Source: Minisyncoccota bacterium
GTDB lineage: Bacteria > Patescibacteriota > Minisyncoccia > UBA6257 > JAGOQP01
Direction: 5' to 3'
NCBI GenBank assembly: GCA_041661795.1
Contig: JBAZTS010000003.1
Location: 3,939 to 67,938, forward strand
Length of the DNA: 64,000 nucleotides
Both the position numbers and the translations under genes were made by a program. The notes under the pieces were generated by a model. It saw only the letters and a list, made by a program, of their open reading frames with translations. It was not told the origin of the DNA and searched no databases. Of the stretch, positions 5,562-63,473 are shown one piece after another. Numbering within the stretch: position 1 is the stretch's first letter; each line of letters opens with the position of its first letter.

Positions 5562-6792
5562 CCAAAATATTGTGTAATTCTTTAGCTAATTTCTTCATAT
5601 CTTTTTCTTTCATTCCTCTTGAGGTAACTGCATAAGTTCCGATTCGTATGGCTGATGGCTTAAAGGGAGAGGTGTCTCCAAAAATTGTGTTGCGGTTGGC
5701 TAAAATTCCATTTTTTTCCAGCATTTTTTCCGCCTCAAACCCGTTTATACCTAAACCAGATACATCTATCAGGAACATGTGACAATCAGTTCCTCCACCA
5801 ACTATATCCCAGCCCAAGGCTGGTCCGCCTCGGGCGGAAAACCCTAATTTTTTCATTTCATCACAAAGAGTTTTAGCGTTTTTTACAACTTGCTTATAGT
5901 AATTTTTGTTTTTCGTCGTAAGCAAAAGTCCATGGGCAATGGCGGCAATTGTGTTGTTATGAGGTCCGCCTTGGAGACCGGGGAATATCGCTTTATCAAC
6001 TAATATTGGTAAATCAATATTTTCTTTTTTTATATAAATTAAAGCTGCTCTCGGACCAAAAAGTGATTTATGAGTTGTAGTCATAACAAAATCAGAATAT
6101 TTAAAAGGAGACGGGTAAAATCCGGCTGAAATTAATCCGGCATAGTGAGAAATATCAGCCAGATGATAAGCCCCTACTTTTTTGGCAATTTCTCCTATCT
6201 TTTTGAAGTTTATTTTTTTAGGATAGGCCGAGGCCCCAGAGACAATAATTTTGGGCTTATGTTTTTTTGCTAATTTTTCTAATTCTTTATAATCAATGTC
6301 ATAATTTTTATCAACGCCGTAATGAACAACGTTAAAAAGTTTTCCAGTAAAACTAACTTTGGAACCATGAGAAAGGTGTCCTCCGGCGGTCAAATCCATA
6401 GAAAGGATTGTTTCGCCTGGTTTTAGAACAGAAAGATAAATAGCCAAGTTAGCAATAGCTCCCGAATAGGCCTGGACATTCACATGCCATTTGTTTTTAT
6501 CTAATTTAAATACCTTTAAGGCCCTATCTTTAGCCAACTCTTCTATTTTGTCATAGTAAACATTCCCAGGATAATATCTTTTTCCGGAATATCCTTCCGA
6601 GTATTTATTGGTCAATTCCGACCCAAGCAACTCCAAAACACCTTGGGGAGCCAAATTTTCTGAAGCAATTAAATCAATGTCTTCTTTTTGTCTTTTTACT
6701 TCCTTGTCAGCTAGGTCAAAAAGAGTTTTGTCTGTCTTTTTTAACTTTTTAAGCATTAAACAATAATAATCCAAAAAGACCGCTTTGAGCAA
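5542..6792 (-). CDS. glyA: Serine hydroxymethyltransferase
   Basis: PLP-lysine region TTTHKSLFGPRAAL, conserved N-terminal SENLAP. Adjacent to folD (one-carbon unit pair). Confidence 0.9.
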   Translation of the reverse strand: MLKAVFLDYYCLMLKKLKKTDKTLFDLADKEVKRQKEDIDLIASENLAPQGVLELLGSELTNKYSEGYSGKRYYPGNVYYDKIEELAKDRALKVFKLDKNKWHVNVQAYSGAIANLAIYLSVLKPGETILSMDLTAGGHLSHGSKVSFTGKLFNVVHYGVDKNYDIDYKELEKLAKKHKPKIIVSGASAYPKKINFKKIGEIAKKVGAYHLADISHYAGLISAGFYPSPFKYSDFVMTTTHKSLFGPRAALIYIKKENIDLPILVDKAIFPGLQGGPHNNTIAAIAHGLLLTTKNKNYYKQVVKNAKTLCDEMKKLGFSARGGPALGWDIVGGGTDCHMFLIDVSGLGINGFEAEKMLEKNGILANRNTIFGDTSPFKPSAIRIGTYAVTSRGMKEKDMKKLAKELHNILVVKKYD

Positions 6793-6824: not shown

Positions 6825-8024
6825 TTAATTAAAATATTCCAGCTGGACATTATCTACCCATAAAGTTCCTTCCTCTCCGTCGTTTCCAAATAAATACAAA
6901 GAAGCGTCATGATTGTCCACTTCCCAATCGGAAGTAACTGTAAATTCATGGGTAATCTTTTCCCAGTCCTTTTTATTTGGAATGGTTTTACTAACAATGG
7001 CCGTGTCAAAAACATAGGCGCCTTGAGAGTTGGACCAGTGATAAATTCCAAATCTGGCGGTTTTGTTTTTATTATCAACTTTAGCCATAAATTTTACCCT
7101 AACAGCCGTGCCCGGCTTCCAACTATGAGTTAGTCCAAGATTTTGCCATGTTTGATAAATTTCTTGGAGACGATGAGGATATCCGTATTGAGTATTTTTG
7201 TCTATAAATTCTATACAAGGAGAATTTCCTATGCCACAAGGGTCAAAAACATGCCCATGATATCCAACCGAAGGACTAGGAACAGAGGGATTGTATCCGA
7301 AAGAAAATCCTCTACTTGGCTTGTGATCACCGTTCAAATTAACATCCCATCCAGGATTATATGATTCCGAAATGTGATTGATGTTTGTATTATCTACTAT
7401 GTTTCCGGAAATATCATCTTTAAAATCGTCGCTTTTTTCTTCATAGGAATAATCATCGTCTCCATCATCGGTTGATGTTTTATCTTTATCTCCGCCTAGG
7501 GTATATTCGTTACTCTCAAGGTTATTGGCAGCAACATAGAAATTGTTACTGTCGTCTACCGAATAAAGATAGTAGCTCTCGGAAGCGACGTCATTAACCG
7601 GATCGGTTGGTAAAATATTTATGGATATTGAGCCGGCCAATTTGGTGAAATCAACAGGCACCCATCCGGTTCCATCAACATTAAAAATATCTTCCTGAGA
7701 TATACAACGGTAAGACCATCCTAATGGAAGCTCGGGAAGATTTAGATTGTCGCAAGTAGGCGAAGAATCTGGAATTGAAGGATAAACGGTGTTGGGACTT
7801 CCCATAAGAACCGCCTGAGGACTAAATTTGGCTTTAGCAAGGTTAATTTCCAAGTTTTTAACATCCGATATTCTTTTAACATCCCGAGATTCGGCTAAAA
7901 ATTCGGCTGGATTGATAACAAATATTGCCGCTCCTCCCAAAAAAACCAATATTCCCATCACCACCAAAAGCTCTACAAGAGTTGTTGATTTCTTTTCTTT
8001 ATCTTCCTTGTTAGAATCTTTCAT
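6825..8024 (-). CDS. Large type IV pilin-like / pseudopilin protein
   Basis: N-terminal class-III-like signal: basic stretch, then TLVELLVVMGILVFL with Glu at +5. An acidic low-complexity stretch lies mid-protein and a large C-terminal domain follows. The -1 residue is Ser rather than Gly, so processing is uncertain. Confidence 0.45.
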   Translation of the reverse strand: MKDSNKEDKEKKSTTLVELLVVMGILVFLGGAAIFVINPAEFLAESRDVKRISDVKNLEINLAKAKFSPQAVLMGSPNTVYPSIPDSSPTCDNLNLPELPLGWSYRCISQEDIFNVDGTGWVPVDFTKLAGSISINILPTDPVNDVASESYYLYSVDDSNNFYVAANNLESNEYTLGGDKDKTSTDDGDDDYSYEEKSDDFKDDISGNIVDNTNINHISESYNPGWDVNLNGDHKPSRGFSFGYNPSVPSPSVGYHGHVFDPCGIGNSPCIEFIDKNTQYGYPHRLQEIYQTWQNLGLTHSWKPGTAVRVKFMAKVDNKNKTARFGIYHWSNSQGAYVFDTAIVSKTIPNKKDWEKITHEFTVTSDWEVDNHDASLYLFGNDGEEGTLWVDNVQLEYFN

Positions 8025-19250: not shown

Positions 19251-19356
19251 TTTTTTTAAATCTCAAACCCCAAGCACCAAATTCTAAATAAATTTAAAAT
19301 CTTAAATTTCAAACTTGTTTAGATTTTAGTATTCGGAATCTGAAAACTTTATTTAA

Positions 19357-21350: not shown

Positions 21351-21388
21351 CCTCTCTTATCGGCCGATCGTTCAATAAGAGAGATTAA
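21351..21388. repeat. 38-bp GC-cored hairpin repeat, copy 1
   Basis: CCTCTCTTATCGGCCGATCGTTCAATAAGAGAGATTAA: 9-bp stem CTCTCTTAT/ATAAGAGAG around the CGGCCGATCG loop. Repeated at 22053-22090. Confidence 0.75.
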
Positions 21389-21442: not shown

Positions 21443-22021
21443 CTAGGAGATTTGCTCCAAACTCCCGTGTTTGGTTATCTCAAATATTTCCACATAACTC
21501 AACATTTTTAGTCCCCTCAGGTCGTCCAGGAATTCTTCTGGTAATTTTGTTTTTCCTATCCAAACACTTTTTTGGATTAAATTAAAATCAAGATTTTTCA
21601 ATACTACCGACAACCATTTTCTTTTTTTCCTCTCTGCCTCCGGAACATCAAAAGCGACCACAGTTACTCTGTTATTTGGAGGTCCCTTTTTATATTTAGT
21701 TACGGGCAAAGAGATTTTTAATTTTATTCTTAATTTCCCCAACAAGATTTTACCCTTATTGGTTAATCTTAATTTGTCCCGATTTTTACTCTCTATCAAC
21801 CCGTCCCTTTTTAATCTATAAACCAAGTTATAAAATTTTTGCTTTTCTCCTTTTACAGCTTCCGCTTCGGCTTTTTTTGACAAAGTTTTATAATACGCTC
21901 TATCCATATCAGACAAAGAAGCTCCGTAACCAGCCTCAAGAAATGACTCTATTAAAAGTCCTACTGCCGTTACGCCGTTCTTTATTAACTCCAAAGCCTG
22001 TAACATTTTGTCCTCTTTCAT
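21443..22021 (-). CDS. wHTH regulator with C-terminal Cas2/VapD-like domain (PaaX-like architecture)
   Basis: N-terminal winged helix (YNLVYRLKRDGLIES). C-terminal VVAFDVPEAERKKRKWLSVVLKNLDFNLIQKSVWIG resembles the Cas2 core. No CRISPR array present. Confidence 0.4.
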   Translation of the reverse strand: MKEDKMLQALELIKNGVTAVGLLIESFLEAGYGASLSDMDRAYYKTLSKKAEAEAVKGEKQKFYNLVYRLKRDGLIESKNRDKLRLTNKGKILLGKLRIKLKISLPVTKYKKGPPNNRVTVVAFDVPEAERKKRKWLSVVLKNLDFNLIQKSVWIGKTKLPEEFLDDLRGLKMLSYVEIFEITKHGSLEQIS

Positions 22022-22052: not shown

Positions 22053-22090
22053 ACTCTTTTATCGGCCGATCGTCCAATAAGAGAGATTAA
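22053..22090. repeat. 38-bp GC-cored hairpin repeat, copy 2
   Basis: ACTCTTTTATCGGCCGATCGTCCAATAAGAGAGATTAA. Three mismatches to copy 1, same orientation. Confidence 0.75.
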
Positions 22091-22145
22091 GTTATAAGCA
22101 ATGGAATTGAAATTAAAGTCGGGTATTTTCCAAACAAAAATTTAG

Positions 22146-22226
22146 TGGGCAGGGAGGGACTTGAACCCTCAAACCTTGCGGCACTAGCTCCTAAAGCTAG
22201 CGTGTTTACCATTTCACCACCTGCCC
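22146..22226 (-). tRNA. tRNA-Leu (anticodon UAG)
   Basis: Cloverleaf folds on the minus strand: acceptor GGGCAGG/CCTGCCC, anticodon stem CTAGC/GCTAG with loop TTTAGGA, long variable arm, T-arm GAGGG-TTCAAGT-CCCTC. CCA is not encoded. Confidence 0.85.
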
Positions 22227-22306
22227 AGTAGTACTATAGTATTTTAAAATACGGATTTTTTCAATAATAAGAGAAAAAACACTAATAAAATAGCCATTGT
22301 TCCCTA

Positions 22307-22335
22307 TTTACAAACTCTTTGTAATATGCTATTAT
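22307..22335 (+). promoter_or_regulatory. Sigma-70-like promoter TTTACA-N17-TATTAT reading into the GC-rich island
   Basis: Followed by two leader hairpins, CGCCTTTGGAAAAGGCG (22365-22381) and ACCCCCACACCAAT-TCT-ATTGGTGTGGGGGT (22388-22418), before the ATG at 22491. Confidence 0.45.
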
Positions 22336-22490
22336 ATAGGGTAGAACTTATCAAACAACTTTCTCGCCTTTGGAAAAGGCGTGGGATTTACCCCCACACC
22401 AATTCTATTGGTGTGGGGGTTTATAGGGTGCTTTAAATGCAGTTAACAACAACTATCCCCGATTCTAATCGGGGAGGAAGGAAGTGGAAG

Positions 22491-23525
22491 ATGTCGACTT
22501 TGTTGTCCACACTGTTATTTGGTCTGGCTGGAGTGGCATTCCTGCTGTTTGTGGGAATCGCCATCTTCGTCAACGGCTGGAGAAAAGTTCCACCGTATCC
22601 GTTCATGGTCGCGAGGAAGAAGTTTAACCGCTTTATCGAGACGATGACGAACGATACAACAACAGGAGGATCAACTACGCCACGTTTCATTCTGAAGCCA
22701 GGAGGAGACCAGTTGTTTATCCTCTATCCGTGGTTCCAGAGTGGTGTGGTGGTGGATTGCTCTGACAAGAACTTCGACGGATCAGTGGACGGAGTCAGGG
22801 CTCTCAAGAAGACCGCAGAGGGAAAGTATGAGGTTGGATTCGATCTCTCCATTCCCTACGAGATCACGGTCTTCATCGACTCCAAGCGATTCGACAAGTT
22901 CGTCGAAGCATGTGGAGGCATCGAAGGGGACAATGTGACTGATGGACATTTTAAGAAGGTCGAGAAGATCCTCAACGGAATCATCACCGAACAGATGGTT
23001 TCCATCGCCGCGTCCATGAAGTCCACCACTCCAAAACCGGACGGGACAACAGACGAGGGAGTGATCTGGGAGGATTTCTACAAGCGCATCGCTGATATCG
23101 CCGACCAACTCATCCGACAGATCGCAGCCGCTGAGGCGGAAGGCGGCCTTGTGCACGACAGCGAAATCCAGAGCGTCCGGAGTGGCAAGGGGAAACTCCC
23201 GTTGAAGCGACTTGGCATCAAGATCAAGCGCTTCAATTTACAAGAACCCAAGCTTCCCAAGAGCATTTCAGACGCAATAGCAAAGAGGGAAGCCGAGGAG
23301 CGAGAGAAGGACGCGGAGAAGACAGAAATGGACGGAGTGATAGACCGAATCAACGACGCCAAGACAAAGACCGGTCTCTCGCCCGAACGCGCTATGGATC
23401 TTGTTCAGAGTGAGCGTGGCAAGGCACGGCGCATCGTTCACACCATCGATCAACAAGGAAAATCAAGTGGGAGTGGGTCAACTCCCGTCATTGTGATTCA
23501 AGAAACAACCGGAAAGGGGGAGTAA
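22491..23525 (+). CDS. SPFH/band-7 (flotillin-like) membrane protein
   Basis: Strong SD GGAGGAAGG before the ATG at 22491. N-terminal TM, SPFH-like core (ILKPGGDQLFILYPWFQSGVVVDCSD ... YEVGFDLSIPYEI), then a Glu/Ala-rich coiled-coil tail (AKREAEEREKDAEK). Confidence 0.5.
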   Translation: MSTLLSTLLFGLAGVAFLLFVGIAIFVNGWRKVPPYPFMVARKKFNRFIETMTNDTTTGGSTTPRFILKPGGDQLFILYPWFQSGVVVDCSDKNFDGSVDGVRALKKTAEGKYEVGFDLSIPYEITVFIDSKRFDKFVEACGGIEGDNVTDGHFKKVEKILNGIITEQMVSIAASMKSTTPKPDGTTDEGVIWEDFYKRIADIADQLIRQIAAAEAEGGLVHDSEIQSVRSGKGKLPLKRLGIKIKRFNLQEPKLPKSISDAIAKREAEEREKDAEKTEMDGVIDRINDAKTKTGLSPERAMDLVQSERGKARRIVHTIDQQGKSSGSGSTPVIVIQETTGKGE

Positions 23526-23526
23526 C

Positions 23527-24003
23527 ATGCCAAACAAGGACTCTCTCGAGAAAGCGTCTCCTCCTTGGACACCAAGAGCCAGAGGATGTTTTCTTTTCAT
23601 TTTCTTGTTTCTGACTGTCGTTGCCATCGCCGTCGTCTCATTCTGGCCCGAAGGCAACGGCGCCAAGACCGTCGAGGCGGTCAGGCAGATCCCAGTGGTC
23701 GCGGAGATCAGTCTGGGACAAACTAAACAAGTCGCAATCCAGCCTGGACACGTAGTAGCAGTTCGCTTCGTTCTCAACCCCGGCGAACCGCCCGGTGAGT
23801 GGGGTTACCGATGGCTTGAGAGAGAGGAAGGGTTGTGCGCAAGTGTGACCCTTTCCTCGGGTTTGGTGCCCCCATTTGTGGATTGCGCCAAGCCCATCAC
23901 CATCGTGCCCCTACCCAAAATCAGGACGACCACCCAAATGATCGTCCACAACACCAGTGAGAAAACAGCCAAACTGGAGTTCTTCCTGACAAGGCCGATT
24001 TAG
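23527..24003 (+). CDS. Small membrane-anchored protein, possible NfeD-like partner of the SPFH protein
   Basis: Single TM (CFLFIFLFLTVVAIAVVSFW) and a beta-rich soluble domain. Coupled to the upstream gene with a 1-bp gap. High GC. Confidence 0.35.
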   Translation: MPNKDSLEKASPPWTPRARGCFLFIFLFLTVVAIAVVSFWPEGNGAKTVEAVRQIPVVAEISLGQTKQVAIQPGHVVAVRFVLNPGEPPGEWGYRWLEREEGLCASVTLSSGLVPPFVDCAKPITIVPLPKIRTTTQMIVHNTSEKTAKLEFFLTRPI

Positions 24004-24030
24004 AGCACCCTAACGAACACAAAAAAAACA

Positions 24031-24068
24031 AAGACCCGACCGCTCACGCGATCGGGCTCTTTTGTTTT
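24031..24068 (+). terminator. Rho-independent terminator with GC-rich stem
   Basis: AAGACCCGACCGCTCACGCGATCGGGCTCTTTTGTTTT. Confidence 0.6.
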
Positions 24069-24084
24069 AACAAAACTTTTATTT

Positions 24085-24483
24085 TTATAAGAGGCCTCCA
24101 GTTCCTTTATTAAGAGATCCTTCAACAAATTTAACAATTCCCCAAGAGAGCAAAGCAACAACTATACCGATAACGGCATAGAGAAGCATACTCTTGGCTT
24201 TTTTGACTTTGGTGTCATCTCCACTGCTGGTAATAAAGTAGAAAGCGGCGATAAGAATAAACAGGACAGCGACTATAAACAGAATTGTATAGACCCACTG
24301 AACTATTTTAGTAAATATCGCTACCGCTCCACTAACAGTTGTTGGAGCTCCCGGATTGTTCACTATATTACAGGGAAGTGCTCCTGGCTGTCCACACGGA
24401 ATCGGAGCCGCAGAAACTAAAGAAGTACTCAAAATCCCAAATAAAGCCAACAAAAGAAGAGAGGAAATTAATTTTTTTGACAT
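24085..24483 (-). CDS. TrbC/VirB2-type T4SS pilin, paralog 1
   Basis: Signal peptide, Cys-containing variable region, then conserved core VQWVYTILFIVAVLFILIAAFYF...KVKKAKSMLLYAVIGIVVAL (two TM helices separated by a short basic loop). Confidence 0.6.
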   Translation of the reverse strand: MSKKLISSLLLLALFGILSTSLVSAAPIPCGQPGALPCNIVNNPGAPTTVSGAVAIFTKIVQWVYTILFIVAVLFILIAAFYFITSSGDDTKVKKAKSMLLYAVIGIVVALLSWGIVKFVEGSLNKGTGGLL

Positions 24484-24544
24484 AATTTATTTTCAATTTT
24501 TACGACCTTTTTACTTTAAATAATTATAACAAATTATTTTAAAA

Positions 24545-24979
24545 TTAGTAGTTACCACCAGATCTCAAGAAGTTGTCTATAATAATAGGAATACCGGCTC
24601 CTAAAATTGCAACAACAATAGCAATAACGGCATATTTTAATTGAGCTCTGGCAATTTTGACTTTAGCGTCATTACTCCCCCCTTGAATAAAGTTATAAGC
24701 GGAAAGCAATATAAAGAGAACAGCAACAATAAAGAATATAGTGTAAATCCAACGAATAATTCCAAAAACAACTTGCTTAGCAGACCAACTTCCGCCCGGC
24801 TGAGCACTCACACTATTAAGACCGGTTATCGGACTTCGTAATTTAGGATCACTCCCAAACGGATTTATAATTTCCTCTCTAGTTGGTGGAGTAGCAACAG
24901 CCGCCAAAACGAAACTATTTATAAAGAAAACATTGATAAACAAAAAGCTTAAAGATACTAAAACAAATTTTTTAATCAT
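24545..24979 (-). CDS. TrbC/VirB2-type T4SS pilin, paralog 2
   Basis: Core IRWIYTIFFIVAVLFILLSAYNF...KVKIARAQLKYAVIAIVVAIL. C-terminal IDNFLRSGGN shared with paralog 3. Confidence 0.6.
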   Translation of the reverse strand: MIKKFVLVSLSFLFINVFFINSFVLAAVATPPTREEIINPFGSDPKLRSPITGLNSVSAQPGGSWSAKQVVFGIIRWIYTIFFIVAVLFILLSAYNFIQGGSNDAKVKIARAQLKYAVIAIVVAILGAGIPIIIDNFLRSGGNY

Positions 24980-24994
24980 TTTTTATTTTTAATT

Positions 24995-25336
24995 TTAATT
25001 TCCCGACCTTAAGAAATTGTCTATAATAGCAGCCACGCCCGTAGAAATTAGAGCTATTACTATAGCAATAACCGCATATTTTAAACGAGCCACTCCTTCT
25101 TTCACTTTCTCTGGCCTACCTTCAGACATCAAAAACGTATAAGCCCCAAGAAGTATGAAAAGAATGGCTAATATGAAAAATATTGTATATGCCCATTTAA
25201 CAGCTTTCAAAAGCAGATTCTGAACACCTTGAAAATCTGTGACTATCGGTTCCAAAACAGGTTGGGCCAATACAGGATAAGATAACAAGGAAAATAAACT
25301 GAGTATTATAATAATGCTAAAAAGTGTTTTTTTCAT
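24995..25336 (-). CDS. TrbC/VirB2-type T4SS pilin, paralog 3
   Basis: Core VKWAYTIFFILAILFILLGAYTF...KVKEGVARLKYAVIAIVIALI...IDNFLRSGN. Confidence 0.6.
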   Translation of the reverse strand: MKKTLFSIIIILSLFSLLSYPVLAQPVLEPIVTDFQGVQNLLLKAVKWAYTIFFILAILFILLGAYTFLMSEGRPEKVKEGVARLKYAVIAIVIALISTGVAAIIDNFLRSGN

Positions 25337-25340
25337 ATAT

Positions 25341-25724
25341 TTATGGATTTGCCGGCTGATTGACTCCCAAAAATTCTTTTAGTAATAACACCAAACTGCT
25401 TGCCACTAATATAACGGCAAATCCTATAACGGCATTATATATAATCTTTTTGCCCTTATCAAACTTGGCCTGATTTCCTCCGGCAGTCAACATATTAAAT
25501 CCGCCAAATAAAACCATAAGAGTAAGAATAGGAACTGAAATTATAATAAGCCAATTAGTGGCTTTAGTTATTAAATCGGAAAAACTTTCCGTACCTAATG
25601 GGTTTTTAAGTTTTATGGACGTTTTGGGTTGCGGATCTGTGGGTCCAACAGGATCGGCAAATACCAACTTTTGAATAGGAAACAAAAAAAGTGCTAAAAA
25701 GATAGAATAAAATAACTTCTTCAT
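25341..25724 (-). CDS. TrbC/VirB2-type T4SS pilin, paralog 4 (diverged)
   Basis: Signal peptide and the same two-TM architecture (WLIIISVPILTLMVLFGGFNML...KFDKGKKIIYNAVIGFAVIL). Confidence 0.5.
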   Translation of the reverse strand: MKKLFYSIFLALFLFPIQKLVFADPVGPTDPQPKTSIKLKNPLGTESFSDLITKATNWLIIISVPILTLMVLFGGFNMLTAGGNQAKFDKGKKIIYNAVIGFAVILVASSLVLLLKEFLGVNQPANP

Positions 25725-25755
25725 AATTAAATTATAACAACATTATTTTATAAAA

Positions 25756-26232
25756 CTATCCCTTTATCCCCAGGAGGGTTATAAGAGTGTCCACTATTAA
25801 CCAAGCGGCGAATGTAATCAATAGAGCAATAATTACTCCTTGAGCCATACTCTTTCCTTTGGAAAATTTCCCTTCGTTGCCTTGGGCGGTCATCATCATA
25901 AATCCTCCCACCATTATCCAAATAACTCCCACCGGAACAGCCACACTAAAAACAGCAAACCAGATTATCTTATCAACCATCACCATAAAATGCTTAAAGG
26001 TGCATGGAACTAAAGTTGTTTTGGTTGTTGGGTCTTCGTTTCCACAAGGAACTAATGGAATTTTACCGTTCCTTGATTCGCATTTTATTCCGTCGGGTTC
26101 TTCGCTGTTACATGGAACAACAATAATTGGCGGAGAGTTTGGCTCCTGCGGTTGAGCAGAAACAAAACTCGTTGAAAAAATATTAAACAAGACCAACCCG
26201 AACAAAGTTAAATAAAATATTTTTTTTGGCAT
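25756..26232 (-). CDS. TrbC/VirB2-type T4SS pilin, paralog 5 (Cys-rich N-terminal region)
   Basis: Signal peptide, six Cys in the variable region, and a two-TM core (IIWFAVFSVAVPVGVIWIMVGGFMMM...KFSKGKSMAQGVIIALLITFAAWLIV). Confidence 0.5.
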   Translation of the reverse strand: MPKKIFYLTLFGLVLFNIFSTSFVSAQPQEPNSPPIIVVPCNSEEPDGIKCESRNGKIPLVPCGNEDPTTKTTLVPCTFKHFMVMVDKIIWFAVFSVAVPVGVIWIMVGGFMMMTAQGNEGKFSKGKSMAQGVIIALLITFAAWLIVDTLITLLGIKG

Positions 26233-31194: not shown

Positions 31195-32328
31195 ATGAAG
31201 ATAAAACCATCAGAAGATTCAAAAAAGAGTAATCCTCTTTTTTATTTATTAAAAAATAACCCAAACTTATTAACGCCGCCAAAGGAAGGAGACACCTTTG
31301 ATGCTGAGCTACTATATAAGGACGAACGCAGAGCCTATTTTGATTTAGAAGGAAAAAGCACTGGAATCGTCTTTGGATTAGAGTTTATTAATGCAAAAGA
31401 CATAATAAAAGGATTGGAAATCGGTCAAAAAACGACTATTACGATTACCAATCCGGAAAATAATGACGGAGAAACAGAAATTTCTTTAGTTAAAGCCCTT
31501 TGGCAACAGAACTGGCAGGAAATAAAGAGGTCTAAAGACGCGTCAGAACCAGTGGTGGTTAAAATATTAGGAGCTAATAGTGGTGGACTGATGGCCGAGC
31601 TTTATGGAATTAAGGCGTTCGTCCCAGTTTCTCAGCTTTCGGCCCAAAATTATCCTCACGTTGAAGATGGTGATAAAAATAAAATCTTAGACGAACTAAA
31701 AAAATTCATAGGAAAAGATATGGAAGTAAAGGTATTGGATTTTAACCCTAAGGCCGATAAATTAATACTTTCAGAAAAAGAACTAACTGGAGAAGGAGTT
31801 AAAAAATCGCTGGAAAATTATAAAATTGGAGATACTGTTGATATTATAGTTTCTGGGGTGGCTGATTTTGGAGTTTTTGTTAAATTTGCCGACGATCTAA
31901 ATATTGAGGGTCTAGTTCACATATCCGAGATAGACCATAAACTCATAGATTCACCAAAGGAAATTGTTAAGGTTAACGATCTACTTAAAGCTAAAATAAT
32001 AGAAATTAAAGACGGCAAGGTCTCTTTGTCCTTCAAGGCCTTAAAACCAAATCCTTGGGATAAGGCGTTGGAATTTTTCAAAGAAGAACAAGAAGTCAAA
32101 GGAACCGTAACAAAGTTTAATCCTTTTGGAGCTTTAATTTTTTTGGGAAACGACTTACAAGGATTAATTCACATCTCCGAATTTTCCGCCCAAGGCGGAT
32201 CCGCCTCTGGCGGAGAAAGTAATATGGAAAAAATGAAAGAGACGATTGAGGTTGGAAAAGAGTACACATTTGTTGTCTCACAATTAAAACCTGACGAGAA
32301 AAGAATTATTCTAAAACTCAAAAAATAA
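31195..32328 (+). CDS. rpsA: S1-domain RNA-binding protein, short ribosomal protein S1 homologue
   Basis: At least three S1 repeats, for example GLVHISEIDHKLIDSPKEIVKVNDLLKAKIIEI and GLIHISEFSA...VGKEYTFVVSQL. Contains an in-frame GGSASGG insertion that matches a palindromic element. Confidence 0.6.
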   Translation: MKIKPSEDSKKSNPLFYLLKNNPNLLTPPKEGDTFDAELLYKDERRAYFDLEGKSTGIVFGLEFINAKDIIKGLEIGQKTTITITNPENNDGETEISLVKALWQQNWQEIKRSKDASEPVVVKILGANSGGLMAELYGIKAFVPVSQLSAQNYPHVEDGDKNKILDELKKFIGKDMEVKVLDFNPKADKLILSEKELTGEGVKKSLENYKIGDTVDIIVSGVADFGVFVKFADDLNIEGLVHISEIDHKLIDSPKEIVKVNDLLKAKIIEIKDGKVSLSFKALKPNPWDKALEFFKEEQEVKGTVTKFNPFGALIFLGNDLQGLIHISEFSAQGGSASGGESNMEKMKETIEVGKEYTFVVSQLKPDEKRIILKLKK

Positions 32329-32466: not shown

Positions 32467-34320
32467 ATGAAAATCAACAAACCGTCAAATATTTTAAAAA
32501 ATATATTAGTTATCATCCTTGTGATCTTTTCCGTCCTTCTTTTTTTCTCGGCTTTTTATTCTCAGGAAGAAGAGACACAAAGCATAACTTTAAATGATTT
32601 AGTTACTCAAATTAACGGCGGCGGTATAACAAAAATTACCGTTCAAGGAGAGAGTATTTTTGTTGATTTGGTAAGTGGAGAAAAAGCCATAGCCAGAAAA
32701 GAAATGGAGTCGGGTTTATCAGAAACACTAAAAAACCTGGGAGTTGATCCACAAAAAATGTCCACCATCCCATTGGAGATAAAAGATGAGTCGGGTTTTA
32801 AATTGTGGGCCGGTGTTCTCTTACCAACCTTGATTCCAATAATAGTAATTGGCCTATTCTTTTGGTGGACTTTCAGGCAAGCAAAATCAGGGGCTTCACA
32901 GGCATTTAATTTTGGAAAATCAAACCTAAAGCTTTTTTCTCCTTTTAAAGACAGGATTACATTTGCCGATGTGGCTGGCCTCCAAGAATCAAAACAAGAA
33001 TTAATGGAGGTTGTTGATTTTCTAAAAAATCCAAAAAAATATCTGGATTTGGGAGCGGTTATTCCAAGAGGCGTTCTGCTTTTAGGAATGCCAGGAACCG
33101 GAAAGACGCTTTTGGCCAGAGCCGTAGCCGGAGAAGCTGAAGTCCCCTTCTTTCATATCAGCGCCTCTGAATTTGTTGAAATGTTTGTCGGCGTAGGAGC
33201 ATCAAGAACCCGTGACGCTTTTTCAACTGCCAAAAAAGCGGCTCCTTCTATATTATTCATAGATGAAATAGACGCCATCGGAAGAGAACGTGGAGCGGGC
33301 TTAGGAGGAGGACATGACGAAAGAGAGCAAACTTTAAATCAAATACTAGTTGAAATGGATGGATTTGAAAAAGAAAATCAAGTAATAGTACTTGCCGCTA
33401 CCAATAGACCGGACATTTTAGACCCAGCCCTTTTAAGACCGGGGCGTTTTGACAGAAGGGTGATTTTAGATCTTCCCGATTTAAACGACAGAGAACAAAT
33501 ACTTAAAATACACTCAAGAAATAAGGCCTTTTCTAAAGATGTTGATTTGAGAAAAATAGCCACAAGAACTCCGGGTTTTTCGGGAGCGGACCTGGCCAAT
33601 TTAATGAATGAAGGAGCAATACTGGCCGCTAGAAAAAATAAAAAACAAACAGAACAGGAAGATTTATATGAATCCATAGAAAAAGTTTTATTGGGTCCAG
33701 AAAGAAAATCGAGAGTTCTTAATAAAAAAGAAAGAGATATTACCGCCTATCATGAAGCTGGGCATGCTTTGGTCTCGGCCTGTTTAAAAGATGCTGACCC
33801 GGTTCATAAGGTTTCCATAATCGCTCGTGGGCAAGCCGGCGGATACACGTTAAAACTTCCTTTAGAAGACATGCATCTTAAAACCAGAAGACAATTTGTA
33901 GCTGATCTGGCTACTATGTTTGGAGGATACGCCACGGAAAAAATGGTTTTTGGAGACATTAGCACCGGAGCATCCAACGATCTTTCGGTTGCCTCTGATA
34001 TGGCCAGAAAATTGGTGACTAAGTATGGAATGAGTGAAAAATTTGGTCCGATAACTTTTGGGAAAACACAAGAATTGGTTTTTTTGGGAAAAGAAATTTC
34101 AACGGAAAAAAATTATTCGGAAGCTACCGCGCTTGAAATAGACAAAGAAGTGGGGAAATTTATAGAAACGGCCTATTCCTTGGCTAAAAAGATTATCAAA
34201 GACAAAAGAAAGGTTTTAGACATAATAGCCAAAACTCTTATGGATAAAGAAACGATAGAGAAAGATGCGTTTGATGAAATTATAAGAAAATCAAAGATAA
34301 AAAAAATAGAAATAAAATAA
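32467..34320 (+). CDS. ftsH: ATP-dependent zinc metalloprotease FtsH
   Basis: AAA Walker [19 protein letters not shown], second region of homology, and zinc site HEAGHAL. Confidence 0.95.
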
Positions 34321-35453: not shown

Positions 35454-35508
35454 AGGAGGTCATAGGTTTCCGCCAGAGGCGGATCCGCCTCTGGCGGACA
35501 ATCCTCCA
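35454..35508. repeat. Long hairpin with a perfect 28-bp GC-rich palindrome centred on GGATCC
   Basis: CCGCCAGAGGCGGATCCGCCTCTGGCGG (35470-35497), flanked by GAGGAGG...CCTCC. The 20-mer GGCGGATCCGCCTCTGGCGG is identical to 32194-32213 inside rpsA. Confidence 0.8.
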
Positions 35509-35636: not shown

Positions 35637-35776
35637 TGTTTCACGTGAAACAATTTTTTTATTTTAAAGTGGCAAAGATGTGGCAATTCCATTTCCACTT
35701 GGTTTCCACTTTACCACCACACTAATAGTATTAGTGTGGTGGTTTATTTCCACTTTACAATGTTTCACGTGAAACA
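35637..35776. promoter_or_regulatory. Two copies of the perfect 16-bp palindrome TGTTTCACGTGAAACA flanking a TTTCCACTT repeat cluster and a 29-bp hairpin
   Basis: Palindromes at 35637-35652 and 35761-35776. TTTCCACTT at 35693-35701, 35703-35711 and 35747-35755. Hairpin CCACCACACTAATAGTATTAGTGTGGTGG at 35714-35742. TATAAT at 35794-35799 precedes the yraN ATG. Confidence 0.6.
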
Positions 35777-39897: not shown

Positions 39898-41019
39898 TTA
39901 AGACGATTTAATAGGCATTACTATGTAAAAATAGGAGTTGTCGTCGGGAGTTTTTATTAAACTAGCTTTATTCTCACCGTTAAATCCAAAAAAGACATTG
40001 GTGGTTTTTATGTTTCTAAAACCGTCCAATAAAAATTTCCAGTTAAAAGTTATTTGAGTTTTTGATCCTTTGATTTTAGCAGGCAATATATATTCGCTCT
40101 CCCCAAAATCATTTGAAGACGAAAGCGCTTTTATATTTTTTAGGCTCTCGTCAACAACAAACCGTATTTCGTTTAACCTATTAGAGAGAGAACTAGTCAG
40201 TTTTAAAGCAGAAATAACGTCGTCTTTGTCAAACAGGCACTCGGTTTCAAAATCATTTGGTATTACTGTTTCGTAATCCGGAAATTTTCCCTCAATTAAT
40301 CTTGAAGATATTCTAACTTGGTCAGTTTTAAACAAAACCTGATTTTCTTCAAAAACCATTTTTATTTTCTCTCCTTTTTTAGATGAAAAAATTCTAATTA
40401 TTTCTTGGACTGTTTTTATTGGAACTATAAAAGATTCATCTTTTTCGTGTTTGGTTTCAATCTTTTTTTCAGAAAAAACTTTTTGAGCCAATCTAAAGCT
40501 ATCAGTGGCCGCTAATTTAAATAACCCATCTTTAAAACTAAATAAAATTCCACCCAGCTCCGGTCTTATGTCAGAAACCTGACAAGCGCAAGAAACGGAA
40601 GAGAGGGAATCTATAAAATAATCTGAATCAAAAATAAAGAAATTATCTTTTTTTTCTTCTGCCTCTGGAATTATAGGAAAGTCGTCTTTGGAGTTGGTTG
40701 AAATTTTGGCCTTAAAATTATCAGTCGCAACTAAAAGATTATTTCCTTTACTTTCCAAACTTATTCTCTCTAAAGATAAATTATTTATAATCTGGGAAAA
40801 AACTAAAAATGGAATAGCCAAAGAACCATCTTTTATTACTTTTGCGGGTATAAAATAACTAATACCTATCTCAAGATCAGTTGAGGATATTTTTAATTTT
40901 CCATCAAACGTTTCAAAAAGAAAATTTTTAAGAACCGGTAAATTAGACGATTCTTTCCTGGCTCCGGAAATAGCGTTCAAACCTTCTTTTATATTATTTT
41001 TTAAAGCAATTATATTCAT
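39898..41019 (-). CDS. dnaN: DNA polymerase III beta sliding clamp
   Basis: Three-domain clamp. N-terminus LKNNIKEGLNAISGARKESSNLPVLKNFLFE. Downstream of dnaA. Confidence 0.85.
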   Translation of the reverse strand: MNIIALKNNIKEGLNAISGARKESSNLPVLKNFLFETFDGKLKISSTDLEIGISYFIPAKVIKDGSLAIPFLVFSQIINNLSLERISLESKGNNLLVATDNFKAKISTNSKDDFPIIPEAEEKKDNFFIFDSDYFIDSLSSVSCACQVSDIRPELGGILFSFKDGLFKLAATDSFRLAQKVFSEKKIETKHEKDESFIVPIKTVQEIIRIFSSKKGEKIKMVFEENQVLFKTDQVRISSRLIEGKFPDYETVIPNDFETECLFDKDDVISALKLTSSLSNRLNEIRFVVDESLKNIKALSSSNDFGESEYILPAKIKGSKTQITFNWKFLLDGFRNIKTTNVFFGFNGENKASLIKTPDDNSYFYIVMPIKSS

Positions 41020-41175
41020 AATAACTATTATATCTTATTAATTAATATAAATAGTAGTAGTAACAGTAGTGTCTGTGGATATGTGGAAAAGCTCATGGTG
41101 GGGCTTATATAATATTGTTTTTAAAACCATCTTATTTAATTAATTGAGTAAAAATTGTTGATAAACTGGGTAAGT
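41020..41175. other. Candidate oriC segment / DUE (dnaA-dnaN intergenic)
   Basis: AT-rich. DnaA-box-like TGTGGATAT (41074-41082) and TGTGGAAAA (41082-41090). Confidence 0.4.
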
Positions 41176-42549
41176 TTAACTAACAGGATTCTTACTTATC
41201 GACTCTTTTATTAGTATTATTTTTTGATTTAATGACTTATCCTTATTCATTTCCCTGCTTATTTTCTCGTAAGAGTGAATAACGGTGGTGTGATCTCTTT
41301 TGCCCATCTTATCCCCAATATCTGGGTAGGACATCCCCAACATATCCCGTAAAAGAAACATGGTTATTTGTCTTGGTAGCACAACCTCTTTTCTTCTGGA
41401 TTTATTAGTTAGGTCGCTTAAGGATAATTCAAAAAATTGAGCCACTGATTTAATAACCTGAAGAGGATTAACGTTTACTATGTTTTGTTGTATTGTCGCA
41501 TTTATTATTTCGTCGGCTGTTTTAGTGTCTATCTCAGCATTTTTAAATTCTTTATAAAAATAGAGTTTATTTATTATTCCTTCTATCTCTCTTATGTTTC
41601 TTTGAATCTTAGAGGCTATAGTATGACAAATTTCGTCGTTTAAAATAAAATTCTTGTCTTGAATTTTATTTTTTATAATAGCTAGCTTCATCTCATAGTC
41701 CGGGTAAGTAATATCAGCTATCATACCACCCTCAAATCTAGATCTTAGGCGTTCTTCGAGTGTTGGTATGGCTGATGGCGGTCTGTCGGAGGAAAGTATT
41801 ATTTGTTTGTTGTTTTGATAAAGGATATTAAAGGTGTGAAAAAATTCTTCCTCACTTCTTTCTTTTCCGCCTATAAATTGGATGTCGTCTATAATTAAAA
41901 CGTCTATGTTGCGGTATTTATTTTTAACATCTTCCATTCTTTTGTTTCTAATAGCCCAAACAACATCGTTAACAAACTTTTCCGAGGGCACATATTTTAC
42001 CCTAATTCTTCCGTGATAATTTTTGATAATTTCATTTCCCAAGGCCTGTATTAAGTGGGTTTTTCCTAGCCCCGTTCCTCCATAAATAAAAAACGGATTA
42101 TATTTCCTGCCAACTTCTTTGGAGATGGCAATTGAAGCAGCATAAGCCATTTCATTTGACGAGCCAACTACAAAATTTTTAAAACTATAACGAGGATGAA
42201 GATTTGTTTCAGGGTCCGTAGAGAATTCAGCGAATCCAACTTGGCCAACTTCGGGAATTGGTTTTTTGGTTTGAGAGAAAATTTTTTCTTCTAGGTTGTC
42301 GTTTAAAACAACGTAATCAATTCTATTAATTCCGCTGTCTATATTTTGTAGCGCCTCTAATATAATTTTATTGTATTTACTTTGAACCCACTCTTTGGAA
42401 AAATTATTATTAACTCCTAAAACAACCAGCCCCACAGAATCGTTTTTTTCCACCAATCGGCTGTTTCTAAACCAGGTTATAAAATTTGGTTTGGATATCT
42501 GTAACTCTATTTCGGCTAGGGCTTTTTCCCAAAGTTTTTTTAAGTCCAT
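41176..42549 (-). CDS. dnaA: Chromosomal replication initiator DnaA
   Basis: AAA+ Walker A GGTGLGKTHL, Walker B/sensor motifs, and a C-terminal DnaA-box-binding HTH (TTVIHSYEKI). Confidence 0.95.
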   Translation of the reverse strand: MDLKKLWEKALAEIELQISKPNFITWFRNSRLVEKNDSVGLVVLGVNNNFSKEWVQSKYNKIILEALQNIDSGINRIDYVVLNDNLEEKIFSQTKKPIPEVGQVGFAEFSTDPETNLHPRYSFKNFVVGSSNEMAYAASIAISKEVGRKYNPFFIYGGTGLGKTHLIQALGNEIIKNYHGRIRVKYVPSEKFVNDVVWAIRNKRMEDVKNKYRNIDVLIIDDIQFIGGKERSEEEFFHTFNILYQNNKQIILSSDRPPSAIPTLEERLRSRFEGGMIADITYPDYEMKLAIIKNKIQDKNFILNDEICHTIASKIQRNIREIEGIINKLYFYKEFKNAEIDTKTADEIINATIQQNIVNVNPLQVIKSVAQFFELSLSDLTNKSRRKEVVLPRQITMFLLRDMLGMSYPDIGDKMGKRDHTTVIHSYEKISREMNKDKSLNQKIILIKESISKNPVS

Positions 42550-55661: not shown

Positions 55662-56495
55662 ATGAGACAAAAATTAGGACAGCATTTTTTAAAGAATAAA
55701 GAAGTTTTGGAAAACATTGCCGACTCTCTTGAATTAAAAAAAGGCGACGTTGTTATAGAAATAGGTCCGGGGCACGGGGAATTAACGCAATATTTGCTTA
55801 ATGCTGGCGTTACTATTATTGCCATAGAGAAAGATGAGAGTATGGTGGAATATTTATGTAATAAATTCGAAGCACGAAGCACAAAACTCGAAACAAGCAC
55901 AAAATCCAAAATTCAAAACAATGAGTTAAATTTAATTAATGGGGACGCCCTCAAAATACTCCCTGTTTTGAATACGGTATACGACATACGGCATACGAAA
56001 TACAAAATTGTTGGCAATATTCCCTACTACATAACTGGGCATCTGTTAAGAATTATTAGCGAGTTAAAAAACAAACCCAAATTAACTGTTTTACTTATAC
56101 AAAAAGAAGTGGCGCAAAGAATTTGCGCAAAATCTCCACAAATGAATTTATTATCTGCTAGTGTGCAATTTTGGGCGGAACCCAAAATAATACAAAATGT
56201 GACTAGGGGAAATTTTAATCCTCCTCCAGACGTTGATTCGGCTATTGTTTTGTTAAAAACAAAATCACTGATTAACACGGATAAAAATAACACACGGATT
56301 GATACAGATATATACTATGGTTTTATAAGAAAAATTTTTAAGCAACCCAGAAAAACGGTTTTGAATAATTTAATTAGTGGTGGATATAAGAAAGATGAGG
56401 TTTTGGGGTGGTTTAAAAATAACAAAATAAAGGAGAATTGCCGACCGCAGGATTTTGATGTGAATATGCTGATAAAAATGGCTTTAGAGCTTTAA
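55662..56495 (+). CDS. ksgA: 16S rRNA (adenine1518/1519-N6)-dimethyltransferase KsgA/RsmA with a repeat-derived in-frame insertion
   Basis: GQHFL, SAM site EIGPGHGELT, NGDAL and VGNIPY motifs. Insertion KFEARSTKLETSTKSKIQNNE is encoded by the AAATTCGAAGCACGAAGCAC repeat at 55863-55882. Confidence 0.8.
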   Translation: MRQKLGQHFLKNKEVLENIADSLELKKGDVVIEIGPGHGELTQYLLNAGVTIIAIEKDESMVEYLCNKFEARSTKLETSTKSKIQNNELNLINGDALKILPVLNTVYDIRHTKYKIVGNIPYYITGHLLRIISELKNKPKLTVLLIQKEVAQRICAKSPQMNLLSASVQFWAEPKIIQNVTRGNFNPPPDVDSAIVLLKTKSLINTDKNNTRIDTDIYYGFIRKIFKQPRKTVLNNLISGGYKKDEVLGWFKNNKIKENCRPQDFDVNMLIKMALEL

Positions 56496-62379: not shown

Positions 62380-62389
62380 CTATTTATTT

Positions 62390-62497
62390 AAGCACGAAGC
62401 ACTAAATCCGAAATTCGAAACAATATTTAAATTCTAATGTTAAAAATTTTTAAACTCAAACACCGTTTCGGATTTTGATATTAGAATTTCGAATTTT
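62390..62497. repeat. Intergenic repeat block: AAGCACGAAGCAC + AAATCCGAAATTCGAAA, then inverted TTTCGGATTTTGATATTAGAATTTCGAATTT
   Basis: Member of a family also found at 55863-55882, 63068-63106 and (inverted) 63501-63532. Confidence 0.7.
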
Positions 62498-63056: not shown

Positions 63057-63067
63057 TCTATTCGTTT

Positions 63068-63106
63068 AAATTCGAAGCACGAAGCACGAAATCTGAAACA
63101 AATCAC
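63068..63106. repeat. Repeat AAATTCGAAGCACGAAGCACGAAATCTGAAACAAATCAC
   Basis: Shares a 20-mer with the ksgA copy at 55863-55882. Confidence 0.7.
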
Positions 63107-63107
63107 A

Positions 63108-63473
63108 ATGACAAAAATCCAAAATAATAAGCAATATGATTTAGAAGAGAGAACCTATGAGTTTGCCAAGAACGTTAGGGTATTTATTAAGAAAATCAGA
63201 AGAACAATATCAAACATTGAAGATGGAAAACAAGTCATAAGATCGTCAGGTTCTATGGGAGCTAATTATATAGAAGCCAACGAAGCATTAAGTAAGAAAG
63301 ATTTTATTATGAGAATTAAAATTTCCAGGAAAGAATCTAAAGAAAGTGTTTATTGGCTGACCTTGATAGATGTTGAGGGTGATAAAGATTTAGAAAAAGA
63401 AAGAGAAATTTTAGTAAATGAGGCACAAGAATTGATGTTAATTTTTAGTTCTATTATGAGGAAATCAGTTTAG
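63108..63473 (+). CDS. Four-helix-bundle protein (family often encoded in rRNA intervening sequences / accessory loci)
   Basis: YDLEERTYEFAKNVRVFIKK...GANYIEANEALSKKDFIMRIKISRKESKESVYWLTLI pattern. Confidence 0.55.
   Translation: MTKIQNNKQYDLEERTYEFAKNVRVFIKKIRRTISNIEDGKQVIRSSGSMGANYIEANEALSKKDFIMRIKISRKESKESVYWLTLIDVEGDKDLEKEREILVNEAQELMLIFSSIMRKSV

Follow-up and report, generated by a model that had tools for sequence, protein, structure and literature searches.

Cassette replacement at a fixed chromosomal position is typified by the pneumococcal cps locus, which lies between dexB and aliA, and by the enterobacterial O-antigen rfb clusters with their atypical guanine-plus-cytosine (GC) content. 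A two-gene operon at 22230-24068 in a 64,000-nucleotide stretch of contig JBAZTS010000003.1 from a Minisyncoccota bacterium (the whole stretch is called the window) resembles these loci. It encodes an SPFH/Band-7 protein and a small membrane partner, and its coding sequences (CDSs) form a variable block of foreign composition with conserved sequence on both sides, at a chromosomal position that the relatives share. As in the cps and rfb loci, the gene tree departs from the genome tree, and alleles would have been exchanged by homologous recombination in the sequences on either side. The locus differs from cps and rfb in comprising just two genes within 1.5 kb, which encode a putative membrane scaffold and a predicted β-sandwich protein rather than glycan synthesis enzymes, in breakpoints that apparently fall inside the transcription unit and spare the native promoter, leader and terminator, and in a donor allele that is unsampled.

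Orthologous replacement and SPFH operons are both already known. Xenologous replacement in situ is recognized by a common slot, conserved flanks, a confined anomaly and a tree conflict, all of which are found here, and by a donor lineage with a near-identical allele, in place of which the best match is 42% identical. The evidence moderately favors the interpretation that a divergent allele from a GC-richer Paceibacteria relative took the place of both CDSs of the window operon, which kept its own promoter, leader and terminator. The precision of this apparent coding-only swap, the signs of repeated exchange and the linkage between an SPFH gene and a pilin array draw attention to the locus.

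The window operon shares with HflK/HflC-FtsH and with the stomatin (QmcA/YbbK, PH1511)/flotillin-NfeD systems an N-terminally anchored Band-7 protein and a coupled small membrane partner. A gene for FtsH, classically the client of SPFH proteins of the HflK/C type, lies 8.5 kb downstream (32467-34320). Unlike HflK/C, it has a single SPFH gene and no HflK/C pair; unlike the stomatin/flotillin-NfeD systems, its partner is predicted to be an eight-stranded β-sandwich and not an NfeD oligonucleotide/oligosaccharide-binding (OB) fold. Neither a subfamily model of NCBIfam nor a solved SPFH structure matches it by sequence, which separates it from the named SPFH systems.

Next to the operon lies an array of VirB2-like pilin genes. 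Such arrays comprise 2-11 genes, occur in 383 assemblies and are hypervariable, and one of them is essential in Ca. Southlakia epibionticum (PMC12102498). The five neighboring PF18895 genes in the window are of this hypervariable type. The text of PMC12102498 has no occurrence of SPFH, stomatin or flotillin, and no description was found in the searchable literature of a module of an SPFH protein and an envelope-facing partner fixed beside VirB2-like pilin arrays, a linkage that is seen here and extends to an outgroup whose partner carries an SLT domain.

The Compositional Anomaly

The open reading frames (ORFs) of the operon, at 22437-24003, contain 52.8% GC, compared with 35.7% in the remaining 62 kb of the window. 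The most GC-rich 1.5-kb interval starts at 22501 (53.2%; mean 36.2%, standard deviation 3.1%), and this jump is the most extreme in the whole window. In a 200-nucleotide (nt) profile, GC rises at ∼22400, peaks at 0.595 and falls at ∼24000-24100; the GC-rich stretch coincides with the transcription unit. A preliminary description, drawn from the letters of the window, reported a sharp jump to 55-57% GC in an AT-rich genome. The jump is real and the sample counts are reproduced (56.7% at 22741-22800 and 35.0% at 24541-24600), but the figure is slightly high as a mean, given 52.2% for CDS1 (SPFH) and 54.9% for CDS2 (partner).

Codon usage and protein composition follow the same trend. GC at third codon positions (GC3) is 0.62-0.63 in the SPFH gene and 0.64 in the partner gene, against 0.312±0.036 in 56 other ORFs (z=+8.7 and +9.0, respectively), and GC1 and GC2 are likewise raised in both genes. 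The Lys codon AAG makes up 0.87 of Lys codons in the cassette and 0.18 elsewhere, and the Glu codon GAG 0.58-0.73 against 0.25. Gly, Ala, Arg and Pro (GARP) residues are raised to 0.25 in the SPFH protein and 0.29 in the partner (0.194±0.034 elsewhere), and Phe, Tyr, Met, Ile, Asn and Lys (FYMINK) residues are lowered to 0.28 and 0.22 (0.344±0.048). By raw tetranucleotide distance the segment is the top outlier (z=7.6). Its GC-normalized tetranucleotide signature is also deviant (z=-2.8), but the segment is not alone in this, and the signature therefore adds little beyond GC.

The anomaly is restricted to the CDS block. The AT-rich spacer 5' of the operon (22227-22361, 24% GC) and the first pilin gene (pilin-1, GC3 0.32) are both native in composition and abut CDSs of 52-55% GC. 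Recalculation of sliding-window GC and of codon usage thus leaves the anomaly standing and rules out a uniform composition (GC3 z≈9). The composition, codon usage and amino acid make-up of the two genes are foreign to this genome.

A Conserved Operon in an Occupied Slot

In a word-indexed search of 5.8 billion protein clusters, each of the two proteins retrieved nothing but itself. An exhaustive HMMER search, which covered 1.84 billion representatives, found 13 representatives at E<1e-10, including about nine full-length relatives (E<1e-14), the closest 42% identical. The same search found no second family copy from this metagenome-assembled genome (MAG), which fits replacement and not addition. 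The full nine-sequence alignment is too divergent for locus scans, and a four-sequence alignment gave one locus in each of two collections. Searches of viral contigs, INPHARED phages and PLSDB plasmids turned up no relatives. Best matches in high-GC taxa, perhaps including an actinobacterial host, had been anticipated in the preliminary description; every full-length homologue with readable context lies instead in a Paceibacteria-type locus, and no evidence connects the family with Actinobacteria, phages or plasmids.

The loci of relatives, designated by L numbers, have a conserved gene order. The order PNPase-NYN-S15-XerC...tRNA-Leu-SPFH-partner-pilins-SBP-GyrA is found in L002, L010 and L011, and partially in L004, L006, L007 and L008. 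L002/L003, on an 806-kb contig of 58% GC, reads PNPase-NYN-S15...XerC-H+-PPase-tRNA-Leu-SPFH-partner-five pilins-SBP-GyrA, and L010 and L011 have the complete order including XerC and tRNA-Leu. L004 preserves SPFH-partner-six pilins-SBP-GyrA and L006 preserves H+-PPase-tRNA-Leu-SPFH-partner; L007 and L008/L009 carry SPFH-partner, with pilins next in L008/L009, and L014 has a tRNA followed by SPFH. tRNA-Leu(UAG) lies directly upstream of SPFH in L002, L003, L006, L010 and L011. The arrangement tRNA-Leu(UAG)-SPFH-partner-pilin is thus found in Paceibacteria relatives of 42-58% GC.

The interval between tRNA-Leu and the pilins, which on an island reading should be empty in relatives, is occupied by SPFH and partner in every relative with readable context, so the pair is not a novel insertion. 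Judged by sequence and synteny, it is a conserved, lineage-specific Paceibacteria operon beside a VirB2-like pilin array.

Gene Trees and the Noncoding Frame

GyrA identity among the relatives is 72-77%, roughly equidistant, and the GC content of their flanks spans 36%-59%. So wide a range at this level of identity means that GC-richer potential donors with the same locus exist. The cassette proteins diverge faster than the flanks, with 25-41% identity for SPFH and about 20% for the partner.

Neighbor-joining trees with 200 bootstraps place the cassette and its flanks in different company. The flanks unite the window with L011 (GyrA 100%, SBP 100%, pilin-1 74%, concatenated 100% bootstrap), and a group of the window, L011 and L004 is recovered at 99.5%. 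In the SPFH tree, by contrast, the window joins L004 and L005 at 100%, and its pairing with L011 receives 0%. Compositional attraction is excluded as the cause of this conflict, because the L011 cassette is equally GC-rich.

The noncoding parts of the operon side with the flanks. The features of the locus are as follows.

22145-22226, minus strand: tRNA-Leu(UAG), called by ARAGORN and by the Rfam tRNA model (64.5 bits); conserved left neighbor
22307-22335, plus strand: extended -10 sigma-70-like promoter, TTTACA-17 nt-TG-TATTAT, consensus scan 10/12 plus TG
22365-22381, plus strand: leader hairpin 1 with a 7-bp stem, from sequence and RNA folding
22390-22420, plus strand: leader hairpin 2 with perfect 14-bp arms ACCCCCACACCAAT/ATTGGTGTGGGGGT, from repeat search and RNA folding
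22456-22490, plus strand: leader hairpin 3 (22456-22475) leading into the purine-rich Shine-Dalgarno (SD) tract GGAGGAAGGAAGTGGAAG
22491-23525, plus strand: SPFH/Band-7 protein, 344 amino acids (aa), Pfam PF01145
23527-24003, plus strand: partner protein, 158 aa, with a short basic N terminus, one transmembrane helix (about 16-38) and an ectodomain
24034-24067, no strand assigned: GC-stem terminator with T-runs on both strands, from a terminator scan
24085-26232, minus strand: array of five VirB2-like T4SS_pilin small membrane proteins, Pfam PF18895

Alignments of the noncoding segments, scored as z against shuffled sequence, gave the following values.

Promoter: window versus L011, 8.9; window versus L004, 1.6
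Whole leader: window versus L011, 9.0; window versus L004, 3.6
Last 45 nt before the ATG: window versus L011, 8.8; window versus L004, 3.3
3' untranslated region and terminator: window versus L011, 7.4; window versus L004, 3.9

Between the window and L011, noncoding identity is 73-82% over aligned bases, against 29-30% for the SPFH protein of the same pair. Regulatory DNA that is better conserved than protein between sisters is the pattern expected from a swap of coding sequence in place. The left breakpoint zone is probably the SD-ATG block (22456-22490), and the right one probably extends from the stop codon to the terminator.

Proposed In-place Exchange and Its Alternatives

The proposed exchange would begin with uptake of DNA from a related, unsampled Paceibacteria lineage. 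Homologous recombination, with crossovers in or near the SD-ATG block and in the region of the stop codon and terminator, would then exchange the two CDSs in situ and leave the native promoter, structured leader and terminator behind. The donor genome may have contained roughly 50-55% GC, an estimate obtained by setting the cassette GC3 of 0.63 against the host GC3 and GC of the relatives. A community study puts at about 83% the share of inferred transfers into Patescibacteria that originate in other Patescibacteria, and reports that these organisms still carry genes for homologous recombination and competence (PMC12455944). The claim of a recent acquisition from a high-GC donor holds as to a horizontal event, which best explains the composition, and fails as to the insertion of a new island.

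Several observations weigh against this interpretation. No donor or close homologue is present among the 1.84 billion representatives, the best being 42% identical, so that the transfer, its direction and its timing are read from composition and topology only. The neighbor-joining trees are built on saturated, long-branched proteins, and discordance alone cannot tell whether the window, L011 or both were replaced. The cassettes of L004 (z=+3.2/+4.6) and L011 (z=+2.9/+2.4) deviate from their own flanks as well, which requires either several independent swaps or a force that maintains GC. Both contigs from the Logan collection that match the window begin exactly at 22391, the first base of hairpin 2, and therefore leave the left junction uncovered. 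An AlphaFold model of SPFH built from three sequences reaches a predicted local distance difference test (pLDDT) score of only 42, and the fold of the partner comes from single-sequence modeling in which only one of five models is confident.

The elevated cassettes of L011 and L004 also bear on the preliminary description, which held that syntenic orthologues of the same composition in close relatives would speak against acquisition. Such orthologues exist in part, with z=+2.4 to +4.6. They weaken the case for a single recent acquisition and point to repeated exchange or, less likely, to maintained GC.

Vertical inheritance, with high GC actively maintained in the group of the window, L011 and L004, is the alternative that survives best, and it is nevertheless unlikely. 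Candidate forces are selection for mRNA stability or structure, selection on translation rate and GC-biased gene conversion at a hot spot. Maintenance would explain why three related hosts of 36%, 42% and 45% GC have cassettes of about 50-58% GC, why the GC-rich stretch coincides with the transcription unit, and why the window, L011 and L004 share a long structured leader that the clade of AT-rich cassettes lacks. It is hard to reconcile with the 100% against 0% bootstrap conflict between the SPFH and flank trees and with leader DNA that is far better conserved than protein between the window and L011, a combination not easily reached by vertical descent. The shift extends to GC1, GC2 and amino acid composition, and no mechanism is known to produce a GC3 rise of 0.3 in bacteria.

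Cassette GC also varies freely elsewhere in the family. By clade it is 49-55% in the window, L004 and L005, 53-58% in L011 and L007, and 38-45% in L006, L008 and L010, and the L014 and L002 cassettes differ in GC3 (0.52 versus 0.69) at 65% protein identity. The L002 and L010 cassettes do not differ from their own flanks. A cassette GC fixed near 50-55% whatever the host was considered and rejected, given the 39-43% GC of the L006, L008 and L010 cassettes and the difference between L014 and L002. The deviation of the cassette trends negatively with host GC (r=-0.77, n=5, with two of the deviations within noise).

Replacement in L011 only, with the window cassette an older acquisition of the L004/L005 lineage that is slowly ameliorating, is less probable again. 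Topology alone cannot orient the event, the L011 cassette is itself anomalous, and the closest SPFH relatives of the window are just about 40% identical. The window anomaly, however, is by far the strongest and sharpest (z≈9), and its border with pilin-1 is abrupt (GC3 0.32), in contrast to the blurred gradients of L011 (0.58) and L004 (0.45). Host GC3 has re-equilibrated between these lineages (0.31, 0.39 and 0.49), so a neutral, vertically inherited cassette should have followed, and so should an old resident.

An assembly chimera, in which a stretch from a GC-richer relative was mis-joined into an AT-rich contig, is very improbable. The source is metagenomic, GC-richer relatives with the same locus exist, and both Logan contigs break at the same leader base, 22391. 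A chimera would, however, need two switches 1.6 kb apart without shared k-mers, and the identical sequence recurs in five contigs: two from NCBI MAGs (32.6 kb and 110.6 kb), one from JGI and two from Logan. Contig JBAYLG010000009.1 (MAG GCA_041664185.1, annotated 'Candidatus Paceibacterota bacterium') matches the window at 100% identity over 16.2 kb. The same protein is also encoded on a second NCBI MAG contig of 110,622 bp, on a JGI contig of 110,594 bp and on the two Logan contigs. The latter (L012 and L013) come from different runs, SRR18595301 and SRR6484324, and are 100% identical to the window; both span the right GC-to-AT junction and run on through the pilin genes, and the longer one extends past SBP into GyrA. 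Their common start implies a graph branch or coverage failure at 22391 in both data sets, which could reflect heterogeneity left of the hairpin or sequencing errors induced by it. The leader-to-CDS arrangement at the left junction is the same in the independent relative L011, which makes a double chimera 1.6 kb apart very unlikely.

That an unrelated organism of high GC, for instance an actinobacterial host, donated a new genomic island inserted beside tRNA-Leu can be set aside as equally improbable: the locus shares with tRNA-associated islands a compositional anomaly at a tRNA gene and a tyrosine recombinase gene nearby, but the same gene pair fills the slot in all readable relatives, the tRNA has its 5' side towards the operon, 22230-24068 contains no integrase and no att-like direct repeats flank it, which speaks against tRNA-Leu as an integration site, XerC is syntenic in L002, L010 and L011, full-length homologues are confined to Paceibacteria-type loci with no phage, plasmid or viral matches, and the promoter, leader and terminator are native.

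A mobile cassette with terminal repeats was also considered and rejected. The ORFs do lie between the arms of a 15-nt inverted repeat (14/15 matching, 22424/23998), but the window contains ∼30 distinct comparable pairs (50 overlapping matches). The repeat is not conserved in L004, L011, L005, L002 or L010. The segment contains no transposase and is single-copy.

The Two Proteins

As the preliminary description had it, gene 1 is SPFH/Band-7-like, and it is tightly coupled to a gene for a small membrane protein. The SPFH stop codon (TAA, 23523-23525) and the partner ATG (23527) indicate translational coupling. Starts for the SPFH gene have also been called at ATG 22437 (362 aa) and at GTG 22533 (330 aa, NCBI), whereas the SD-ATG at 22491 is conserved among relatives. 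The protein matches Band_7 (PF01145) with 35.5-35.7 bits against a cut-off of 23.6, over profile positions 19-171 of 176, and all nine family members match this model. None of the nine matches a named SPFH subfamily model of NCBIfam, and a profile search of PDB sequences returned no SPFH chain at E<0.01. By its sequence, gene 1 encodes a divergent SPFH/Band-7 protein.

An N-terminal transmembrane anchor (residues about 4-27, Kyte-Doolittle maximum 2.75) is followed by basic residues, and a Glu/Lys/Ala-rich stretch at 257-316 is predicted to be helical even in the poor model. The partner ectodomain is predicted to form an eight-stranded β-sandwich. Identification of the partner as NfeD was rejected, because it carries no NfeD signature, no NfeD profile matches it, and a β-sandwich is predicted in place of a C-terminal OB-fold β-barrel. 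Neither cassette protein matches any component of anti-phage defence in the PADLOC models, and PHROGs and NCBIfam are uninformative for both.

Basic residues lie after the SPFH anchor and before the partner helix. By the positive-inside rule, the SPFH domain would therefore be cytoplasmic and the partner β-sandwich would lie outside the cell. The SPFH protein may thus act as a membrane scaffold on the cytoplasmic face, paired through transmembrane helices with the outward-facing partner, and the two may work with the neighboring pilin/envelope apparatus. The SPFH gene is consistently found close to VirB2-like pilin arrays and, in the outgroup, next to a gene for an SLT-domain partner, which suggests an envelope- or pilus-associated scaffold role.

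The outgroup, L015 (560-3003), encodes a distant SPFH protein (P0017, 28% identical), then a 290-aa membrane protein with an SLT domain, then convergent T4SS_pilin genes. The SLT lytic-transglycosylase domain is VirB1-like. This layout extends the arrangement of SPFH, envelope-facing partner and pilins beyond the family studied. When the profile of the partner family was compared with this SLT-domain protein, the probability was 1.3%, which is not significant.

The Leader, Promoter and Terminator

The operon lies on the 5' side of tRNA-Leu(UAG), which does adjoin it as first described, and has its own sigma-70-like promoter at 22307-22335, a purine-rich SD ahead of the ATG at 22491 and a GC-stem terminator (24034-24057 followed by a T-run) at the right border, where GC falls at ∼24000-24100. 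A TGnTATAAT promoter block is kept across loci. The leader had been described as having two hairpins; it is indeed structured, but folding gives three (z=-4.7).

Hairpin 1 starts ∼25 nt past the predicted transcription start (near 22342) and is present in L011 with an altered stem sequence (cgtctttct...agacg). Hairpin 2 is not conserved in L011. A similar hairpin occurs at 35714-35742 near tRNA-Val, with arms CCACCACACTAAT that have both changed in step, which suggests a small family of GC-rich hairpin elements. The SD block GGAAG(G)TGGAAGATG is common to the window, L011 and L004. The long structured leader (22342-22490) has its counterpart at 7812-8003 in L011, which still forms hairpins 1 and 3 although their stems differ in sequence. 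A shorter version is found in L004 (about 590-702) and L007, whereas neither the clade of AT-rich cassettes nor L002 has the structured leader.

In an Rfam covariance scan the leader matches no family at its gathering score, and only the tRNA passes; a Spot_42 match (21 bits versus 80 needed) is below threshold. The leader may be a cis-regulatory or mRNA-stabilizing element. The terminator serves both the SPFH operon and the pilin operon that converges on it, and is homologous to that of L011. A PyrG_leader match on this bidirectional terminator (24022-24096, minus strand) scores 37 bits against a gathering score of 65 and is probably spurious.

Neighboring Genes and Repeats

The pilin array, the conserved right neighbor of the operon, is native and AT-rich (GC3 0.27-0.38). 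Its pairing with the operon recurs in L002, L004, L008, L010, L011 and the outgroup L015. The genes dnaN and dnaA (39898-42549) are 16-18 kb away, which places the SPFH-pilin locus near the replication origin. This echoes the origin-proximal location reported for type IV secretion system (T4SS) genes in Patescibacteria (PMC12102498).

The neighborhood also contains, as noted in the preliminary description, xerC and a Cas2-like gene bracketed by hairpin repeats, in addition to the five pilin-like genes. XerC is syntenic housekeeping in the relatives. The PaaX_M/Cas2-like gene (21443-22021) is bracketed by a 37-nt near-palindromic repeat at 21352-21388 and 22054-22090, whose copies are 95% identical with the core CGGCCGATCG. 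In L011, CGATCG-core palindromes (6715-6746 and 7489-7524) flank the orthologue, which has the opposite orientation relative to XerC and SPFH; in L002 and L010, H+-PPase stands at this position. The gene looks like a hairpin-bounded module able to invert or move. A scan of genome contigs with the PaaX-like neighbor gave no match.

The orientation of tRNA-Leu(UAG) relative to SPFH varies: it is the same in L002 (7784-7865) and L003 (437-518), and divergent in the window, L006, L010 and L011. Two further repeat families occur in the window. A GC-rich palindromic repeat, TTTCCGCC.AAGGCGGATCCGCCTCTGGCGGA, is present at 5807-5841, 32183-32217 and 35467-35501; it is intergenic and resembles repetitive extragenic palindromic elements, and its copies are 80-91% identical and also pair as inverted repeats. 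An AT-rich repeat of 52-57 nt with (CGAAGCA)-like units has four copies (19257-19313, 55862-55918, 62389-62445 and 63067-63123), and a 52-nt inverted pair of it (62386-62437/63485-63536) encloses ∼1 kb close to the window's right end.

Implications for Patescibacteria

The story of gene capture from a host by its episymbiont is unsupported for this locus, and exchange within Patescibacteria is the better reading, in agreement with the dominant mode in community-level studies. A more tentative possibility is that the tRNA-Leu-SPFH-partner-pilin locus is a recurrent exchange hot spot, at which whole coding cassettes for a membrane scaffold and an outward-facing β-sandwich protein are swapped across GC-divergent lineages, with promoter, leader and terminator staying those of the recipient genome. 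If so, it would represent switching in the style of capsule or O-antigen loci for the VirB2-like pilin cell-contact apparatus of ultra-small episymbionts, possibly tied to a change of host or to phage pressure. Repeated swaps inside a fixed regulatory frame would make the locus a candidate for determining how Patescibacteria interact with hosts or phages, and the GC anomaly would provide a cheap marker for such swaps in MAGs.

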